Shown: positions 9,797 to 53,943, counted from the first letter of the stretch. The stretch: DNA of 64,000 nucleotides from an uncultured Collinsella sp. (GCA_900540835.1 UQHN01000004.1:165-64164), one strand, 5' to 3'. The notes: generated by a model from the letters alone, not told the origin. Program-made: numbers and translations.

Positions 9797-10837
9797 CTAC
9801 CTCACCCGCTTCTTCAACATGAGCGCGATAACCACCGGAGCGCCGAAGATGGCGGTGACGGCGCTGATGGAAAGCTCGACGGGAGAGAACAGCGTGCGCG
9901 CGATCAAATCGCAGCCCGCGCAGAAGATGGCGCCTCCCAAGAAGCACGCAGGAATCACGCGGATGGGCTTCGACGACTTTAGCGCCGACTTCACGAGATG
10001 CGGAACCGCGATGCCTACGAACGACACCGGACCAGCGAACGCGGTCACGCAGGCGGAGAGCATGCTCGCTAGAAGGACGAGCACCACGCGGAAGCGTTCG
10101 ACGTTCACGCCGACGCTTTTCGCGTAGGCTTCTCCCAGCTGGAAGGCGGAAAGGGGCTTCGATATCGCGAATACGCATGCGCTCACGGTGATCACCACGA
10201 CCGCGATGACCGCGATGTCGTCCCAGCTCGAACCCGAGAAGCTACCCAAAGACCAGTTGTGCAGGTTCACGATGGACTGGTCGTCGGCGAAGGCGATGAG
10301 GAAGTTCGTCGCCGCCGAGCAGATGTATCCCACCATGACGCCCGCAACGATGAGCATGGCCATGGAACTTATGCGCCGTGCGATGAGGAGCACGAAGCCG
10401 ATGGTGATAAGCGAGCCCAGAAACGCTGCGGCCACCATGGCCGGCGAAGACATGGCCATGTTCGCGCCTAGAAGTACGATCATCGTAAGCGCGACGACGA
10501 ACTTTGCGCCCGAGGAGACGCCCAAGATGAACGGGTCGGCGATGGGGTTGTTGAAAAACGTCTGCAGCAGGAACCCGGAAAGCGAAAGTGCCCCGCCGAG
10601 AAGCACGGCTGAAAGCACGCGCGGCAGGCGAATCTCCCAGATGACCTGGCTTTCCATGGAATTGGCCGCGCCGCCCGAAAGGATGCCGGGGATGTGGTCT
10701 GCGGGCACGAGCACGCTCCCGATGCACAGGTTGGCCCCGACGAGCACGATGAGGGCAACAGCGAGCAGCGCCGTCACGACGCGACACCGCGCGGCGCGCC
10801 CCGATTCGTCGTATGCCATGGAAAGCCGGCTTCTCAT
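9797..10837 (-). CDS. FecCD-family ABC permease (BtuC-like, iron-siderophore/cobalamin type)
   Basis: About 9 TM helices and the FecCD signature RLPRVLSAVLLGGALSLSGFLLQTFFNNPIADPFILGVSSGA. Confidence 0.9.
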   Translation of the reverse strand: MRSRLSMAYDESGRAARCRVVTALLAVALIVLVGANLCIGSVLVPADHIPGILSGGAANSMESQVIWEIRLPRVLSAVLLGGALSLSGFLLQTFFNNPIADPFILGVSSGAKFVVALTMIVLLGANMAMSSPAMVAAAFLGSLITIGFVLLIARRISSMAMLIVAGVMVGYICSAATNFLIAFADDQSIVNLHNWSLGSFSGSSWDDIAVIAVVVITVSACVFAISKPLSAFQLGEAYAKSVGVNVERFRVVLVLLASMLSACVTAFAGPVSFVGIAVPHLVKSALKSSKPIRVIPACFLGGAIFCAGCDLIARTLFSPVELSISAVTAIFGAPVVIALMLKKRVR

Positions 10838-31039: not shown

Positions 31040-31156
31040 AAGTTGCGGTGAAATAGTGTCTGTTTTAGCTGCTAGATAGCATATTCAGTCCCTGATTCAC
31101 CGCAACTTGTTGGTGGTGGCTTACTGGTAGCTGGTGGTGGCTTACTGGTAGCGTAG
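31040..31156. repeat. Inverted repeat plus a 21-nt tandem duplication in the convergent intergenic region
   Basis: Perfect 12-bp inverted repeat AGTTGCGGTGAA ... TTCACCGCAACT around a ~45 nt AT-rich spacer, followed by TGGTGGTGGCTTACTGGTAGC x2; the second copy overlaps the stop of the permease gene. Confidence 0.7.
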
Positions 31157-47331: not shown

Positions 47332-47373
47332 AGTCCCGTCCCAAATCAGCTAATTTGGGACGGGACTATTTTA
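47332..47373 (+). terminator. Rho-independent terminator after rsmB
   Basis: Perfect 14-bp stem GTCCCGTCCCAAAT-cagct-AATTTGGGACGGGAC followed by ATTTT. Confidence 0.65.
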
Positions 47374-47416
47374 GCTACTTTGTGCCTCTTCGATCCGTTC
47401 GCCATGAAATGCGGTT

Positions 47417-47544
47417 ATTTACTACGTTAAACCGGCTGTCCTCATCCATGCCGAATTTTGTGAAATCAAAACCGCAGGTAGACGGCTTGCCGTTTTTGCA
47501 AATACGCTGCTATGCTCGACCAATACGGGTCAAACGTAGTAAAT
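47417..47544. repeat. Intergenic repeat element, family 2 copy A (~128 nt, terminal inverted repeat plus conserved core)
   Basis: Terminal inverted repeat ATTTACTACGTT / AACGTAGTAAAT. The core AAAACCGCAGGTAGACGGCTTGCC sits ~40 nt in. GC is lower than the surroundings. Confidence 0.7.
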
Positions 47545-47603
47545 GGGCCGCTTTCGTGGCGCAACTCCAGAGTAGTCAATTTGGGAGCGGGGCTACTTGC
47601 CTG

Positions 47604-47840
47604 TTAGTGGTTGTGTGGGCAGTTGGCGCAGCAGCCGCTGGTGGCGCTGGTGCTGGAGCCGCCGCTTCGCTGGTCGGTGTTGTAGAAGCCGCTGCCCTCA
47701 AATTTAATACCGCTGGCCGAGAACGTCTTGGCGGCCGGAGCGCCGCAGCTGGGGCACACGACCTCGGGAGTCTCGGACATAGGATGCTCAACCTCAAACA
47801 CGTTGCCGCAGCTCGAGCACTTGTAATCGTAGCGCGCCAT
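47604..47840 (-). CDS. FmdB-family zinc-ribbon protein
   Basis: MARYDYKCSSCGNVFEVEH ... VVCPSCGA with paired CxxC, plus a Cys/His-rich tail. Confidence 0.75.
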   Translation of the reverse strand: MARYDYKCSSCGNVFEVEHPMSETPEVVCPSCGAPAAKTFSASGIKFEGSGFYNTDQRSGGSSTSATSGCCANCPHNH

Positions 47841-47928
47841 AATACTTCCTTTTCAGCACAAAGCGGGCAGATTACTCTGCCCGCAAAAATTCAAACGTCT
47901 GTAACTGTACCCTATATCGGGCGTTTTA

Positions 47929-50900
47929 TCACGCTTCGCCCCAGAATCTATGCGTGTTGCGCAGGAGCTGTGCGGTTTTGCCCTCGGCGGCCGCAACGTC
48001 GGCCTCGTCAGCCTGCCAGGTCCAGTTGCCCGTGGCCACGCCCGGTACGTTCATGCGCGCGTCGTCGCCCAGCCCCAGGACATCCTGCAGCGGCATCATC
48101 ACCAGGGGAGCGTCGCTTGCCAGCGCATCGCTCATCAGCTTGGCCGCCACCTCAACACCGCTCGGTTCGTCGCCGCCCGCAAAGGAACGCGTACACCAAC
48201 CCGCGAGCGTCGACGTGTCGTGCGTCGAGGTATACAGGATCTTTCCTGGCGTAGGGTGCACGCCGCAACGGACGTCGTAGTCGCCAAACTCCAGCACGTC
48301 CATGCCGGGGAAGCCGCAGGTCGAGGCCATGGCGCGAACGCCGGGCGTCAAATAGCCCAGGTCCTCGGCAATAAAGTTGAGCGGACCCAGCTCGTCATAG
48401 GCGGTCTGAAACAGGTCCTTGCCCGGTCCCGCCAGCCAGCGACCTTCGGCGCAAGCCTTGCCAGCGGGGATACTGAAGTAGCTGTGGAAGCCCAAGAAGT
48501 GATCCAGACGCACGCGGTCGTAAAGTGAGAACGCACGACGTAGGCGATCCATCCACCAGCTATAGCCGTTCTGCTTCATGTGGTCCCAGCGGAACGTCGG
48601 GTTGCCCCACACCTGGCCCTCGGGCGCAAAGTTATCGGGCGGCGCACCGGAGATCTCGATTGCCTTGCCGGTATCGGATAGCCAGAAAATCTCGGGTTCG
48701 CTCCACGCATCTGCCGAATCGTCGGACACGTACATAGGGATATCGCCGATGACCTCGATGCCCTTCTTGTGCGCGTAGTTCATGAGCTCGCACCAGGCTA
48801 GGTCAAAGCGGTACTGCATGTACGCCTGAAGCTCGGCCTCGTCGTGGAAGCGCTTGTCGTCAATCAGGTGCTCGTTGTAGCGCGCAACATCTGCCGGCCA
48901 ATCGTGGCGCGACTCGCCCTCAAAGTATTTCTTGACGGCCATGTAGACGCAGTACTTCTCGAGCCAATCGGCATTGCGATGTTTAAACGCGGTGTACAGC
49001 GGATCGGCATCCTCGCCGCCACGGGCCTTCCAAGTTTCAAAGTCGGCCGCCAGCTCCTCGTGGCTTTCGGGCAGCAGGTCGATATTACCTGCAAAGGCCG
49101 AAGGACCGGCGTAAGGGGAGCGGAAGAAGTCCGTCGGGTTGACAGGCAGGACCTGCCAGTAGCGCATGCCCATAGCGGCCAGATGGTCGATAAAGCGACG
49201 CGTGGGTGCGCCGATCGTACCGGGCTTGCCGTCATCGGTCGGTACCGAGGTGATATGGCACACAACGCCCGCGCCGTGATCGAGCGGCTCCTGCAGGCGC
49301 TGCTCGGCATGGTGATAGATGATCGACGAGCCCAGCGGATACAAATCGAGCGTGACCGTGCCGTTGTGGATCTCGCACTCGTGACCGCTGATCACGTCAC
49401 TCGCGCATTCGTCGAGCGCCGGAATCGTCACGCGGTGCGAATTGCGCAGACTACGGTTAATGATAACCGTCGCGGACTCGCCATCCCTGCCCGTGCGGTT
49501 GTATGCCAGCACCTCGTCGTTGAGCGCGAAGGCCTTGATCTCGCCGTCGATCATAAACGGCAGTGCGCGGCGTACGGCGGAGGCGTTTTTGACAATAGCC
49601 AGCGTGTCGAAGTCGTGCAGTTGGTCCTTGGTCGGCATGGTGCGGCGGTTGCCCGGATCGGTAAGGCCCTCCAGGCCGTATTCGTCGCCGTAGTAGATCG
49701 AAGGCACGCCGGGGAAGGTCATCTGCATGAGCGTTGCAAGCCAAAAACGGCTCTTGGCCAGGCCCATCGCGTTCTCGTCCAGACGCCACTTGCTGCGCTC
49801 GCACTCGGGCAGCTGCGACTCGTCGGGGCCGCCGCCGAGCACCGAGATGATACGCGGGCGGTCGTGGCTCGAAAGCAGGTTGAGCGCGCAAGACAGGGCC
49901 TCACGCGGATAGTTCTCGCGTAGGGTCTCGATATCCTCGGCAGCTTGGTAGGCGTTTTTGTAGCCCATCAAAAAGCCGATGACCATGTCGCGGAAGGGGT
50001 AATCCATGGCAGAGTCCAGCTCGGAGCCCTGCAGGTAGCGGCGCAGATGGCCGTAGCTAATCTTGTTGGAGGCGTCCTCCCAGACTTCGCCGAGCAACAG
50101 TGCGTCAGGCTTTTCGGCAAGCACGGCCTTCTTGATCTCGGCCAGGAAGTCGTCGGAAAGCTCGTCAGCGACGTCCAGGCGCCAACCATGGGCACCGGCG
50201 CGCAGCCATTTGCGGATCACGCCGTCCTTACCTAGGAGCTTCTCGCGTACTAGCTCGGACTTCTCGTTGATGGCCGGCATGTTGCCCACACCCCACCAGC
50301 AGTCGTACGAGCCGTCCTCGTGGAAGGTAAACGCATCGCGCCACGGCGAGTCCTCGCTCTGCCACGCGCCCACGCCGGGGTAGTTGCCGTAGCGGTTGAA
50401 ATAGATCGAGTCGTCGCCCGTGTGGTTGAAGACGCCGTCCAGAATAACGGAGATGCCCAGCTTCTCGGCTGCCTGGCACAGCTCGGTAAAGTCCTGCTCG
50501 GTGCCCAGGATCGGGTCGATCTTGGTGTAGTCGGCCGTGTCGTAACGGTGGTTGCTCGCGGCTTCAAAGATGGGGTTGAGGTAGATGGCCGTAAAGCCCA
50601 ACTCGGCGATGCGGGGCAGGTCTTCCTGGATGCCCTTGAGCGAGCCGCCGTAGAAGTCCCAGGTCTTGATGGAGCCGTCCTCGGCGCGCTCGTATACGGG
50701 CGGCTCGTTCCAGTCCTCGACCATCCGGCGCTGAATACCCTTGCGCGGTTTTTCGAGTTCGGCCATTGTACGCTCGCGCCAATGCTCGTCACGGGCATAG
50801 CGATCGGGGAAGATCTGGTACACCATGCCGCGCTCGTACCAGGTGGGGCGGTTCTCGCGGTGCTTGTAGACGGTAATCTGGAAGGACGGAACCTCGGAGT

Positions 50901-51225
50901 AGTCGTAGGTCACACCCTCGCCACCGGTGCGACCCTGCGGTGCACCCAAGCGGACCTCGGGCTGGCCCTCGATATTGCAGATAAAGCTGTACCAGATAAG
51001 ACAGGGCTCGGTGCACTCAAGCTCTGCAGTAAATATGCCGTCGCCCTCGTGCGTCATGGGATACAGAGACTCACCGATTTCATCGACCCAGGTGCGCAGC
51101 GTAAGCGTTGCCTGGTTGGGATCGGCATCCTCCAAAATCACCGAGAGTGCAACGGAAGTTCCAGTGGTCACAGCGCCAAACGGAGTGCGAAACTGCGGCA
51201 GGCGGCTGTTGTGAATCAATCTCAT
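47929..51225 (-). CDS. malQ: Bifunctional GH13 alpha-amylase-family enzyme (neopullulanase/amylopullulanase-like) fused to GH77 4-alpha-glucanotransferase (MalQ)
   Basis: The N-terminal ~600 aa carry GH13 regions (GFTAIYLNPIF, DGVFNHTG, GWRLDVADE, EVWE, SHD). The C-terminal ~480 aa carry GH77 hallmarks (YWQVLPVNPTD, SPYAGPSAFAGN, GDIPMYVSDDSADAW, VWGNP, RLDHFLGF). Confidence 0.8.
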   Translation of the reverse strand: MRLIHNSRLPQFRTPFGAVTTGTSVALSVILEDADPNQATLTLRTWVDEIGESLYPMTHEGDGIFTAELECTEPCLIWYSFICNIEGQPEVRLGAPQGRTGGEGVTYDYSEVPSFQITVYKHRENRPTWYERGMVYQIFPDRYARDEHWRERTMAELEKPRKGIQRRMVEDWNEPPVYERAEDGSIKTWDFYGGSLKGIQEDLPRIAELGFTAIYLNPIFEAASNHRYDTADYTKIDPILGTEQDFTELCQAAEKLGISVILDGVFNHTGDDSIYFNRYGNYPGVGAWQSEDSPWRDAFTFHEDGSYDCWWGVGNMPAINEKSELVREKLLGKDGVIRKWLRAGAHGWRLDVADELSDDFLAEIKKAVLAEKPDALLLGEVWEDASNKISYGHLRRYLQGSELDSAMDYPFRDMVIGFLMGYKNAYQAAEDIETLRENYPREALSCALNLLSSHDRPRIISVLGGGPDESQLPECERSKWRLDENAMGLAKSRFWLATLMQMTFPGVPSIYYGDEYGLEGLTDPGNRRTMPTKDQLHDFDTLAIVKNASAVRRALPFMIDGEIKAFALNDEVLAYNRTGRDGESATVIINRSLRNSHRVTIPALDECASDVISGHECEIHNGTVTLDLYPLGSSIIYHHAEQRLQEPLDHGAGVVCHITSVPTDDGKPGTIGAPTRRFIDHLAAMGMRYWQVLPVNPTDFFRSPYAGPSAFAGNIDLLPESHEELAADFETWKARGGEDADPLYTAFKHRNADWLEKYCVYMAVKKYFEGESRHDWPADVARYNEHLIDDKRFHDEAELQAYMQYRFDLAWCELMNYAHKKGIEVIGDIPMYVSDDSADAWSEPEIFWLSDTGKAIEISGAPPDNFAPEGQVWGNPTFRWDHMKQNGYSWWMDRLRRAFSLYDRVRLDHFLGFHSYFSIPAGKACAEGRWLAGPGKDLFQTAYDELGPLNFIAEDLGYLTPGVRAMASTCGFPGMDVLEFGDYDVRCGVHPTPGKILYTSTHDTSTLAGWCTRSFAGGDEPSGVEVAAKLMSDALASDAPLVMMPLQDVLGLGDDARMNVPGVATGNWTWQADEADVAAAEGKTAQLLRNTHRFWGEA

Positions 51226-51430
51226 AGTACGGTCCAGTTCTATACAGTCATGGCCAACGGGCCATGGGCTAAACGCACAGTACTTAAGTATATCGTTGCA
51301 CTTTAGTTGTATAAACTACAGCCGCTCATTATCGGCGAACGGTTGTCCTAGAAAATCGTTTTACCATCCACATTATCGCGATACTCGAAAACGCCTATGT
51401 AGATAGTATTTGTAGCCAAACAAAACAGCT

Positions 51431-51564
51431 CCGGTTTACTACGACGAATTGAATGATCTCAACCACAGTCATTTTAGTGATATTAAAACTGCAGGTAGAA
51501 GCGTTGCCAATTTCGATGATTACTCGCCGTGGTCGGCCGGAGCCATTTTGTCGTAGTAAACCGG
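51431..51564. repeat. Intergenic repeat element, family 2 copy B
   Basis: Terminal inverted repeat CCGGTTTACTACGAC / GTCGTAGTAAACCGG. The core AAAACTGCAGGTAGAAGCGTTGCC sits at the same offset as in copy A, and total length is the same. Confidence 0.7.
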
Positions 51565-51594
51565 CCCTCTTTTTAATGCGGGGTTCAACCAAGA

Positions 51595-51627
51595 AGAGGG
51601 CGCCTGCTTGGGGCGCCCTCTTTTGCG
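51595..51627 (-). terminator. Hairpin downstream of glgA (possible bidirectional terminator)
   Basis: AGAGGGCGCC-tgcttg-GGGCGCCCTCT with T-runs on both flanks. Confidence 0.4.
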
Positions 51628-51654: not shown

Positions 51655-53943
51655 TTAGCGGCGCTTGCGGGTGGCAGTTGCCTTGCGGACGGAGGTCTTC
51701 TTGGTCGGAGCCTTTTCCTCGGCCGGAGTGGCGGGGGAGACCGGAGTCTCCTTGGCAGGCTCGGGCTTAGCCTCTGCCTTCGGTGCGGCCTTGACCCCAG
51801 CGGCCTTCGGCGTCGGCTTGGCCTTTACCTCGGCCTTGGGCTCCTCTTTGGCAGCAGCGGGCTTAGCCTCTGCCTTGGGAGTTGCGGCCTTTGCCGTGGA
51901 CTTCTTGGCCGTCGTCGTTGCGCGCTTGCGCGTGGTGGTCTTGGCGGTCGGCTTGGCCTCGACAGCTGCCTCGGCCTTGGGCTCGGCGGCTGTCTCCTCG
52001 ACCTTGACGGCGGGCTTTGCGGCAGCCTTCAGAGCGGCCTTTGTCACAGTAGCCTTGGCGACCGTCGACTTCGTTGCCGTGGTCTTCTTGGCAGCTGTTG
52101 CCTTCTTGGCGGTCGTGGTCGTCTTCTTGGCAGCGGTCTTTGCCGGAGCCTTGGCGGACGGCTTGACCTCTGCGACCTCGGCCTTTACCTCGGCGGCGGC
52201 CTCGACCTCCGCGGCCTTCTTGGCAGCGGCGGTCGTGCGCTTGCGCGTCGTCGTTGCCTTGGCAGCGGTCATGGTCGTCGTAGTCTTCTTGGCCGTCGTC
52301 TTACGAGTCGCGGTCTTCTTTGCCGCAGGCTTCGTAGTGGGCTTCACCTCAGGCTCGGCCTTTGCGGGCTCAGCCTCAACCGGCTTCTCTTCGGCCTTGG
52401 GCTCCTCAGCGGCCACCGGCTCAGCAACAGCCTCAGGCTCGTCGACAACAGCCGCCGGCCGCTCAATCTCCGGATGCATAAAGAAGTACAGGTCCAGATA
52501 CTTGTCAGCCGAGCGCGTCCAGCTATAGTCCTGGCTCATGGCTTGCGTGACCAGCTGGTTCCAGGCATCGCGGTTGTCCCAGAACAGGCGTGCCGCACGG
52601 AACACGGCGTCGCCCATCTCGTCGCCGTTAAAGTTACTAAACGAGAAGCCCGTGCCCTCGCCGGTAAACTCGTTATACGGAATCACAGTGTCCTTCAGAC
52701 CACCGGTCTCGCGCACGATGGGCAGGGTACCGTAGCGCATGGCGATGATCTGCGACAGGCCGCAGGGCTCAAACTTCGAAGGCATCAGGAACATGTCGGC
52801 TGCGGCATACATGCGCTGCGACAGCGCCGGATCGAACTCGATGCGCGCGGCCATGGTGCCGGGGTATTTGTCCTGGAAGTAGCGCAGTCCGTCCTCGTAG
52901 TCGCGGTCGCCGGTGCCCAGAACGGCCACCTGAACGCCGCCGGCTAGGATGCGATCGAGCGCGTACATGACCAGGTCCATACCCTTTTGGCGCGTCAGGC
53001 GCGTGACCATCACCATAAGCGGACGGTCGTCGCGAACCTCGAGTCCCAGCTCTTCCTGCAGCTTGGCCTTGCACACGGCCTTGCCAGAACGGTCCTCCAC
53101 GGTGTAGTTGGCGGCAATGCGCTTGTCGGTCGCCGGGTCAAAGCCTGCCACATCAATGCCATTAAGGATGCCCTGCAGCGCGTACGAACGCTCGCGCAGC
53201 ACGCCATCCAGGCCCTCGCCAAACTCGGGCGTCTGGATCTCGTTGGCATAGGTGGGGCTCACCGTGGTGATGGCATCGGCATAGCGCAGGGCACCCAGCA
53301 TGTAGTTGATGCTGCAGGCGTCGCAACGCAGCTGCGAGGCGGCCGCCGGAATGTGCGCCACGCCCAGGATGTCCTCCATCACGGTGTCGCTAAACTGGCC
53401 TTGGAACGCCACGTTGTGGATCGAGAATACGGTCTTGACGCGGTCGTACAGTGGCAGGCCCTGGTAGAACTCGCGCAAGAACACGGGCGCCAGTGCCGTT
53501 TGCCAGTCGTTGCAGTGCAGTATGTCGCACTCAAAGCCGGCCGGCAGGTGCTGCAGACTCTCGGTGATGGCCTTGGAGAAGAACGCAAAGCGCTCGCCGT
53601 CGTCAAAGAAGCCGTACGGATAGTCGCGCGCAAAGTAGCGCTCGTTGTCGATGAACATATAGGTGACGCCGTCGTGCTCGAGCTTCTCGAGTCCGCAGTA
53701 CTCGTTGCGCCAGCCCAGGCTCACGTAAAAGTCGGAGAAGTGCTCCATCTGTGCCTTGTACTCGTCCTTGATGGTGGCGTACTTGGGCACCATCACGATA
53801 ACCTCGGCGCCGGCGCGCACGAGCGCCGCAGGCAGCGAGCCCGCCACGTCGCCCAGGCCGCCGGTCTTCACAAACGGCGCGCACTCGGCCGAGGCAAACA
53901 CGATCTGCATCTTTTTGCTGGAATCTGCCATATTGTCTCCCAT
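51655..53943 (-). CDS. glgA: Glycogen synthase (GT5) with a ~280 aa Lys/Ala/Thr-rich C-terminal tail
   Basis: N-terminal MQIVFASAECAPFVKTGGLGDV. Likely start is ATG 53931, which has an RBS gggaga. Catalytic domain is ~480 aa, then a PEAVAEP...AKKTATRKTTAKK...KAAPKAEAKPE low-complexity basic tail. Confidence 0.85.
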   Translation of the reverse strand: MGDNMADSSKKMQIVFASAECAPFVKTGGLGDVAGSLPAALVRAGAEVIVMVPKYATIKDEYKAQMEHFSDFYVSLGWRNEYCGLEKLEHDGVTYMFIDNERYFARDYPYGFFDDGERFAFFSKAITESLQHLPAGFECDILHCNDWQTALAPVFLREFYQGLPLYDRVKTVFSIHNVAFQGQFSDTVMEDILGVAHIPAAASQLRCDACSINYMLGALRYADAITTVSPTYANEIQTPEFGEGLDGVLRERSYALQGILNGIDVAGFDPATDKRIAANYTVEDRSGKAVCKAKLQEELGLEVRDDRPLMVMVTRLTRQKGMDLVMYALDRILAGGVQVAVLGTGDRDYEDGLRYFQDKYPGTMAARIEFDPALSQRMYAAADMFLMPSKFEPCGLSQIIAMRYGTLPIVRETGGLKDTVIPYNEFTGEGTGFSFSNFNGDEMGDAVFRAARLFWDNRDAWNQLVTQAMSQDYSWTRSADKYLDLYFFMHPEIERPAAVVDEPEAVAEPVAAEEPKAEEKPVEAEPAKAEPEVKPTTKPAAKKTATRKTTAKKTTTTMTAAKATTTRKRTTAAAKKAAEVEAAAEVKAEVAEVKPSAKAPAKTAAKKTTTTAKKATAAKKTTATKSTVAKATVTKAALKAAAKPAVKVEETAAEPKAEAAVEAKPTAKTTTRKRATTTAKKSTAKAATPKAEAKPAAAKEEPKAEVKAKPTPKAAGVKAAPKAEAKPEPAKETPVSPATPAEEKAPTKKTSVRKATATRKRR

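Follow-up and report, generated by a model that had tools for sequence, protein, structure and literature searches.

We examined two palindromic elements, copies A and B, in the spacers of a glycogen gene locus from an uncultured Collinsella species. Both lie in a 64,000-nucleotide (nt) stretch of Collinsella DNA, hereafter the window, and positions are counted along the whole of it. The neighbouring genes are fmt, rsmB, a Zn-ribbon (FmdB-type) gene, a GH13-GH77 fusion, glgA and two glgC-like genes. Copy A (47400..47561, + strand) is located between the convergent rsmB and Zn-ribbon genes, just past the rsmB terminator hairpin, and copy B (51421..51564, + strand) occupies part of the 430-nt spacer upstream of the GH13-GH77 gene, downstream of a hairpin that follows the glgA stop codon. 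The evidence presented below indicates, with a probability that we put at about 0.7, that A and B are members of a family of Collinsella-specific, non-coding repeats that are palindromic over nearly their whole length. Such repeats are of the kind exemplified by enterobacterial repetitive intergenic consensus (ERIC) sequences or intergenic repeat units (IRU), by repetitive extragenic palindromes (REP) and the bacterial interspersed mosaic elements (BIME) that they form, and by Correia elements and other miniature transposable elements with inverted repeats (MITEs). The family is previously undescribed; the kind of element is already known.

Two elements with one architecture

An initial annotation of this DNA had described A and B as segments of about 130 nt with a common architecture and compensatory inverted repeats. 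Indeed, the two copies align without gaps over 126 nt, of which 77 positions are identical (61%), and they share exact 9-nt inverted ends and a core at equal offset. The exact 9-mer TTTACTACG has only four matches in the window, at 47418 (+), 47535 (-), 51435 (+) and 51552 (-). These are the two inverted ends of each copy, spaced 117 nt apart in both. A 24-nt degenerate core, AAAACYGCAGGTAGAMGSSTTGCC, matches solely at 47468 and 51485 (shuffle expectation 0.00), in each copy 50 nt from the start of the 5′ arm and 41 nt from its end, rather than the offset of about 40 nt proposed earlier. Likewise, the arms are separated by 108 nt in both copies rather than by the proposed 104 or so. The inner pair beside the 9-mer, TT/AA in copy A versus AC/GT in copy B, is compensatory as had been reported, and three more compensatory pairs distinguish A from B outside the 9-mer. 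The low GC content noted at both sites was also borne out, with values falling to 0.39-0.49.

The elements are longer than first described. Palindromes reach well past the earlier ends, to 47400-47561 for copy A (termini CGCCATGAAA...TTTCGTGGCG) and 51421-51564 for copy B (termini CAAAACAGCTCCGG...CCGGCCCTCTTTTT), such that each copy is an imperfect palindrome over nearly its whole length. A and B are much more stably folded than shuffled sequences, with z scores between -3.4 and -3.5 for the + strand and between -2.9 and -4.1 for the - strand. Copy A, a member of subfamily 1 (see below) with a full-length nhmmer match, has a long closing stem, CGCCATGAAATGCGGTTATTTACTACGTT / AACGTAGTAAATGGGCCGCTTTCGTGGCG, within 47400..47561 (+) that encloses the 47417-47544 segment noted originally. 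An alignment of 10 paralogs adds a non-palindromic left extension, TTTGTGCCTCTTCGATCCGTT (47378..47399, +). Its apex (47468..47497, +) consists of the invariant 15-mer AAAACCGCAGGTAGA (47468-47482), a small hairpin, GCAGG-TAGACGG-CTTGC, and then a T run, a combination that was flagged as terminator-like. Copy B (CAAAACAGCTCCGGTTTACTACGAC ... GTCGTAGTAAACCGGCCCTCTTTTT) belongs to subfamily 2 and has a degenerate outer stem; its apex, AAAACTGCAGGTAGAAGCGTTGCCAATTTC (51485..51514, +), has one C>T change within the invariant 15-mer. Both copies are intact, and they are the only family members in the window.

Presence and absence among strains

Ten syntenic loci (L001-L010), all encoding an identical Zn-ribbon protein, were compared with the window to give 11 alleles. 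At the site of copy A, a subfamily-1 element is present in L001 and L005, the spacer is occupied by a subfamily-3 copy in L002 and L007, and no copy is found in L003, L004, L006, L008, L009 and L010. Copy B is present in three of the ten loci (L002, L005 and L010) and absent from seven (L001, L003, L004 and L006-L009), all of which keep the same genes. The alignment of the 11 alleles delimits the presence/absence block at this site to 213 nt (51367..51579, unstranded), which comprises copy B flanked by ~54 nt and ~15 nt on its two sides.

Copy B had been considered as a possible regulatory RNA or riboswitch-like leader of the GH13-GH77 gene. A promoter-like site for this gene, TTTATA-17-TATACT (51287..51315, -), is located in a stretch that is conserved in every strain, and copy B is positioned ~100 nt further upstream. 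Because copy B is absent from seven of the ten loci while the promoter-proximal 200 nt is conserved in all strains compared, it is not an obligatory leader. On the other side of copy B, a GC-rich hairpin after the glgA stop codon, AAGAGGGCGCC...GGCGCCCTCTT (51583..51613, -), is kept in strains with and without the element and is presumably a terminator. The link of the family to the glycogen locus is coincidental, and there is no specific regulation of glycogen genes.

A Collinsella-wide family

A search for further copies revealed many. When the core pattern was run against a single genome of each species, at least 120 loci matched, almost all of them titled Collinsella. An nhmmer profile built from 48 non-redundant copies then detected, within 1.1 Mb of sampled DNA, 160 full-length copies, and clustering of their flanks resolved ~17 orthologous sites. 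A C. aerofaciens record of 0.9 Mb contains 5-6 places matched by BLAST, which suggests ~10-30 copies per genome. The density is approximately one copy per 100-200 kb. Two contigs that carry family copies, L025 and L069, are titled Alloprevotella sp. and Bacteroidaceae bacterium. The flanks of these copies are orthologous to Collinsella sites, and the titles probably reflect bin contamination. No family copies were found in phage collections, and matches in plasmid collections are limited to Collinsella records that resemble pieces of chromosome. For example, NZ_OY725717.1 (PLSDB, 899,693 bp, C. aerofaciens) is filed as a plasmid and looks like a chromosome piece of a fragmented assembly, as do NZ_OY725714/16/22, which are 0.4-1.8-kb records ending in family fragments.

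The hairpin typically spans ~160 nt, or up to ~215 nt when short non-palindromic extensions are included. At least five arm subfamilies can be distinguished (...CTACTACGTTT, ...TTTACTACGAT, ...TTACGGGGC, ...GTGAGTAGAC and a GGAAGTryGCGG type), whose arms differ from one another yet remain complementary, and a single intergenic region can host different subfamilies. Subfamily 1 carries a conserved non-palindromic left extension of ~25-30 nt that recurs in paralogs from unrelated loci and makes the element polar. Copies occupy "safe" intergenic positions, mostly just past the 3′ ends of genes in either orientation, without orientation bias relative to the neighbouring genes. The flanking genes are arranged convergently in 34 cases, in tandem in 38 (22+16) and divergently in 8, an enrichment of convergent pairs. 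These are housekeeping genes unrelated to one another, and include rho/argS, glycerate kinase/pilin, DEAD helicase, M24 peptidase/Mur ligase, selB, GntR, MarR and aldose epimerase genes. Closely related strains differ by the gain or loss of copies. Where orthologous copies are retained, their conservation is no lower than that of the flanks, with mean pairwise identities of 0.88-0.97 in the outer arms.

Arrays of two or three elements at one locus include 19 neighbouring pairs that are 83-91 nt apart in ++, -- and +- arrangements. Those at L087:6355-7030, L101:3520-4200, L124:5574-6250 and L053:6420-6840 mix subfamilies and have a third element in the opposite orientation, and each array spacer contains a similar 40-nt hairpin, TGATCyCCCGkGGACrGAGGrAAACGGrTCATTTTTGCC. 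Matches to inverted flanks had raised the possibility that elements invert at orthologous sites (as an inverton); they are explained by opposite-orientation neighbours within one array. Cassette-like pairs in L017 and L067 likewise turned out to be tandem duplications of at least 300 nt. These duplications (L017:3539-4632 and L067:1992-3243) are exact, have spacings of 794 and 952 nt and each carry a family copy. Either genuine segmental duplication or an assembly artefact could explain them.

Complementary arms and an invariant apex

Individual copies fold into an almost continuous hairpin. The pairing structure was taken from these per-sequence folds, as RNAalifold applied to a mixed-subfamily MAFFT alignment gave just 15 pairs. 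Across the mixed-subfamily alignment, 48 arm pairs are 81% paired, versus 29-42% when partners are slid out of register. Moreover, 32 of the 48 pairs are changed on both sides (305 cells), a level reached by none of 500 shuffles. The initial annotation had taken covariation to favour a structural role, and the covariation is indeed real and strong across the family. It does not, however, discriminate RNA from DNA, because wobble-type mismatches are symmetric between strands and because arm complementarity is also preserved in long palindromes of DNA. Isolated in-helix mismatches number 33 unique events of G:T type versus 30 of A:C type, with no strand bias such as a selected RNA would be expected to show in its wobble pairs. 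A cruder count had seemed to identify the - strand as the RNA strand, and this bias is gone when isolated in-helix mismatches alone are considered. Averaged over copies, folding is slightly better for the - strand than for the + strand.

The family has no relevant match in Rfam at the gathering score or at E<=10, and no sigma-70-like promoter is flagged in or beside copies A and B. A small protein-coding gene was rejected, since open reading frames (ORFs) starting at a conserved (A/G)TGG span 6-80 amino acids (aa) and are inconsistent even inside groups of orthologous sites.

The most constant part of the element is its apex. The 15-nt 5′ half, AAAACCGCAGGTAGA, is essentially invariant, being unchanged or different by one base even in all 28 copies that were detected via their arms alone, and the 3′ half ranges from CTTGCCGATTTT to the fully symmetric CCTGCGGTTTT. 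A symmetric apex stem, AACCGCAGG/CCTGCGGTT (for example at the centre of L087:6604-6769), resembles the stem of helix 45 of E. coli 16S ribosomal RNA, which is likely a coincidence. The terminator-like features of the copy A apex suggest that the apex may act as a terminator or insulator.

An IS110-family element inserts in the apex

Three truncated profile matches reveal elements that are interrupted at the apex, two of them by a left junction (L052 and L018) and one by a right junction (L012). The left junction reads AAAACCG| followed by ACGCTCCTATAAG... (ACGCTCC...) in L052 and L018, and the right junction reads ...ATCAGTG|CAGGTAGA in L012, placing the insertion point at AAAACCG^CAGGTAGA in the family apex. 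The corresponding positions are 47474|47475 in copy A and 51491|51492 in copy B; the inserted element itself is not in the window. An ORF adjoining the junction matches PF02371 (Transposase_20), the transposase of the IS110/IS116/IS902 family of insertion sequences (IS).

A scan of metagenomes for these junctions matched at least 120 contigs. At least 119 junctions were usable, with at least 107 distinct left halves drawn from five subfamilies, and at least 13 complete insertions of 1559-1561 bp without duplication are present among the junction matches listed. A 1560-bp IS110-family element therefore inserts specifically at this point in the apex. It encodes a DEDD/Transposase_20 protein of ~411 aa with a C-terminal helix-turn-helix domain. 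Portions of this element are found at L052:6043-6614 and L012:1-54, and a complete copy is found at L132:1345-2904. Many of the junction matches lie at contig ends.

Previous studies established that IS110-family elements choose 11-14-nt targets by means of a bridge or seek RNA, and that these targets often reside in REP palindromes (PMC11208160, PMC11187229, PMC1525189, PMC12288879). One member of this family, ISPpu10, is reported to need a target hairpin (bioRxiv 10.64898/2026.03.19.712850). The left end of the Collinsella element comprises 305 nt of non-coding sequence containing short stretches that are identical or complementary to the target and to the element's own end junction. These k-mer matches to target and donor are suggestive. 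A search of this left end for a bridge-RNA family in Rfam matched nothing.

The apex motif near phage integrase genes

A 23-nt apex motif also occurs without arms, ~30 nt downstream of a gene for a ~370-aa tyrosine integrase in four phage contigs, where it adjoins GTCCCTAwwwGTCCC repeats. It is found again at the integrase-side junction between prophage and host beside murG-ftsW in L264 and L266. The arm-less motifs are located at L251:4325-4380, L252:32-85, L262:4477-4530, L263:12388-12412, L264:4147-4177 and L266:3824-3850, and they are probably phage att cores. A prophage junction carrying a family arm was sought and not found, no phage was observed to have integrated into a family apex, and the host side of the murG junctions has no arm.

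Comparison with known repeats

The closest known counterparts of the Collinsella family are several other bacterial repeats. ERIC/IRU elements of Enterobacteriaceae and Vibrio (~127 nt) are likewise imperfect palindromes of 100-200 nt over their whole length, strictly intergenic, present in tens of copies per genome in either orientation, and present or absent at orthologous sites. Their arms also stay complementary through paired changes, and they have no known transposase. However, Collinsella belongs to a different phylum (Actinomycetota, Coriobacteriia), such that no sequence relationship is expected and the likeness would be one of working, and its elements are longer (~160-215 nt) and comprise several arm subfamilies around one invariant apex.

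The REP/BIME sequences targeted by IS621 in E. coli and by ISPpu9 and ISPpu10 in P. putida provide a parallel for the insertion site, since there too a repeated intergenic palindrome is the duplication-free target of an IS110-family element (PMC11208160, PMC1525189, PMC12288879). The Collinsella arrays, in which two or three elements of mixed orientation are separated by fixed spacers of 83-91 nt at one locus, also resemble BIMEs. REP units differ in being 20-40 nt long, present in hundreds of copies per genome, flanked by GTAG and linked to REP-associated tyrosine transposases (RAYTs), whereas the Collinsella unit is ~160 nt, occurs in ~10-30 copies per genome and receives its IS in the hairpin apex. 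No Y1 transposase turned up among the neighbouring genes that were scanned, in the course of which no search aimed at RAYTs was made.

Correia elements of Neisseria (NEMIS) and the MITEs RUP and BOX share with the Collinsella family a length of 100-160 nt, long inverted ends, a functional central site, location at gene ends and the potential to form RNA hairpins that terminate or process transcripts. Correia elements are characterized by a TA duplication, fixed ends of 26 bp and a copy number in the hundreds, and none of these traits was found for the Collinsella family. Integron attC sites, which are targets of an IS1111/IS110 subgroup, are also imperfect palindromes (60-140 nt) that are defined more by structure than by sequence. 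Unlike the Collinsella repeats, which show the opposite pattern, attC sites have a conserved stem base and a variable apex, and they are found in cassette arrays beside an IntI gene, arrays that the Collinsella family lacks.

Nature of the family and alternative explanations

Interpreted as repeats of the ERIC, REP or Correia kind, the elements would spread or be homogenised at the DNA level. Read-through transcription would yield a long hairpin in the RNA, its small tip resembling a terminator, and for this reason the elements may act as weak bidirectional terminators, insulators or 3′-end stabilisers, by analogy with ERIC and Correia sequences. The IS110-family element would locate the apex via its bridge or seek RNA, possibly aided by hairpin extrusion, and the repeats may thereby serve it as safe-harbour landing pads. 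Because no autonomous element sharing the arms was seen, mobility is inferred from presence/absence and from the multi-copy status of the family.

Several observations count against this interpretation. For 15 of 16 site groups there is no flanking direct repeat above shuffled controls, and the exception comes from neighbouring copies of a second repeat family, family 1 (see below). Long att-like direct repeats that seemed to flank copy A are not general across site groups. Comparison of filled and empty versions of site B gives no clear duplication, and no sharp, reproducible element ends could be defined. An autonomous element with the same arms was absent from ~2 Mb of sampled DNA, in which the only partial copies are those split by the IS110-family element, whose own ends are unrelated. 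The conservation of orthologous copies is more readily explained by purifying selection, by a function in the host or as RNA, or by gene conversion than by a decaying selfish insert, and a palindrome serving purely as DNA structure would have no need of the element's polarity (its asymmetric apex and conserved left extension). Far fewer copies are present than is the case for REP or Correia elements. As regards a role in termination, the apex hairpin is weak (mean free energies of -6.9 and -3.7 kcal/mol on the + and - strands, respectively), and its T run is strong on the - strand only.

Some of these points would be accommodated if the family consisted of maintained, hairpin-presented landing pads, with the apex kept in order to channel RNA-guided insertion of the IS110-family element, and possibly integration of temperate phages by way of an identical att core, into harmless intergenic positions. 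In an equivalent form, the extruded hairpin would be needed by the element as a structural gate, as is reported for ISPpu10. The polarity of the repeat and the purifying selection acting on its arms would then reflect a function at the level of the host or of the element. We regard this proposal as doubtful. Genes for structured non-coding RNAs, either small RNAs (sRNAs) or cis-acting RNAs, are an unlikely alternative in which one strand would be transcribed, its promoter perhaps lying in the left arm or in the extension, with the apex forming loop and terminator. The long stem maintained by covariation, the conserved asymmetric apex and left extension, the good conservation of orthologous copies, and the small hairpin and T run on the + strand (flagged as terminator-like in copy A) all agree with such genes. 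However, the unbiased wobble-type mismatches and the slightly better average folding of the - strand do not point to an RNA strand, A and B have neither a flagged sigma-70-like promoter nor a counterpart in Rfam, and copies are dispensable among close strains and randomly oriented with respect to neighbouring genes. A regulatory role in the glycogen and maltodextrin genes would give meaning to the location of copy B in the 430-nt spacer before the GH13-GH77 gene. This explanation is extremely improbable, and a riboswitch or leader is rejected, since copies occur beside unrelated genes in both orientations (copy A between convergent genes), lack an Rfam match and, in the case of copy B, are dispensable in 7 of 10 syntenic strains and lie upstream of both the promoter-like site and the block conserved in all strains.

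Two further alternatives invoke mobility by other routes. A classical MITE would be an internally deleted cut-and-paste IS that is mobilised in trans through its terminal inverted repeats and leaves a short target-site duplication. A degenerate MITE was the closest of the options raised by the initial annotation, in that the family is multi-copy, small, non-coding and polymorphic in presence and has long terminal inverted repeats (complementary over ~30 bp and more). Subfamily 4 has the termini TGAGTAGAC...GTCTACTCA, which in one site group are bordered by TA on either side. Yet the ends show no consistent duplication, no transposase gene adjoins any of the ~17 sites, and the only IS found has the repeat as its target and not as its own ends. 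Several arm subfamilies around one invariant centre also invert the arrangement seen in MITEs, whose conserved ends surround a free interior, and we therefore judge a classical MITE to be quite unlikely. The apex might instead be primarily an attB-type core for the tyrosine integrases of temperate phages, with the arms secondary. Its arm-less form near integrase genes in four phage contigs and at the integrase-proximal prophage/host junctions beside murG speaks for this possibility, as does the 11+7+11 dyad layout of the apex in some copies, a layout typical of tyrosine-recombinase core sites. Such a role is very unlikely given that no prophage junction with a family arm was found, the host side of the murG junctions being arm-less, and that none of the 160 copies in sampled DNA is split by a prophage.

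Other repeated modules and neighbouring features

A second hairpin repeat of ~68 nt, AGTTGCGGTGAAATA...TATTTCACCGCAACT, is present in the window at 31041-31107 and in L002, L003 and L007-L009 around 10280-10690. It has conserved arms and a variable apex, numbers ~43 copies in the sampled DNA, is often found beside copies of the ~160-nt family, and is probably the "family 1" of the initial annotation. A GGTAGA loop that appeared to be common to the two families occurs in only 4 of the ~43 copies of the shorter hairpin (AGTTGCGGTGAAATA...) and is a coincidence. The rsmB terminator beside copy A, AGTCCCGTCCCAAAT...ATTTGGGACGGGACT + ATTTTAGCT (47332..47376, +), is of a type that is repeated in Collinsella, and the same module adjoins other copies. 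This terminator-type module, AAAAAAGCCCCGTCCC...GGGACGGGGCTTTTTT(AGCT), recurs at many gene ends, for example at 47332-47376 in the window, at L006:10290-10390 and to the right of several subfamily-1 copies. In Collinsella, spacers are built as mosaics of such repeated modules.

The glgA gene (51655-53943) encodes a product whose length varies from 741 to 774 aa across the window and L001-L010, in which the neighbouring genes are otherwise identical. Its 3′ end is strongly AT-skewed and repetitive and encodes a tail rich in Lys, Ala and Pro.

Implications

Collinsella is among the most prevalent genera of the human gut, and the protein encoded beside copy A is indexed in ~10,000 assembly blocks. 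Definition of this repeat family explains the recurrent low-GC, structured intergenic segments of these genomes and prevents their mis-annotation as riboswitches. The family also offers markers for strain typing and, because many junction matches lie at contig ends, accounts for contig breaks. A 15-nt IS110 target borne on a hairpin in a Gram-positive gut bacterium provides a new example for the study of bridge/seek-RNA recombinases and of structure-gated targeting, and the apex motif shared with phage integrase modules points to an integration hotspot that can be tested.

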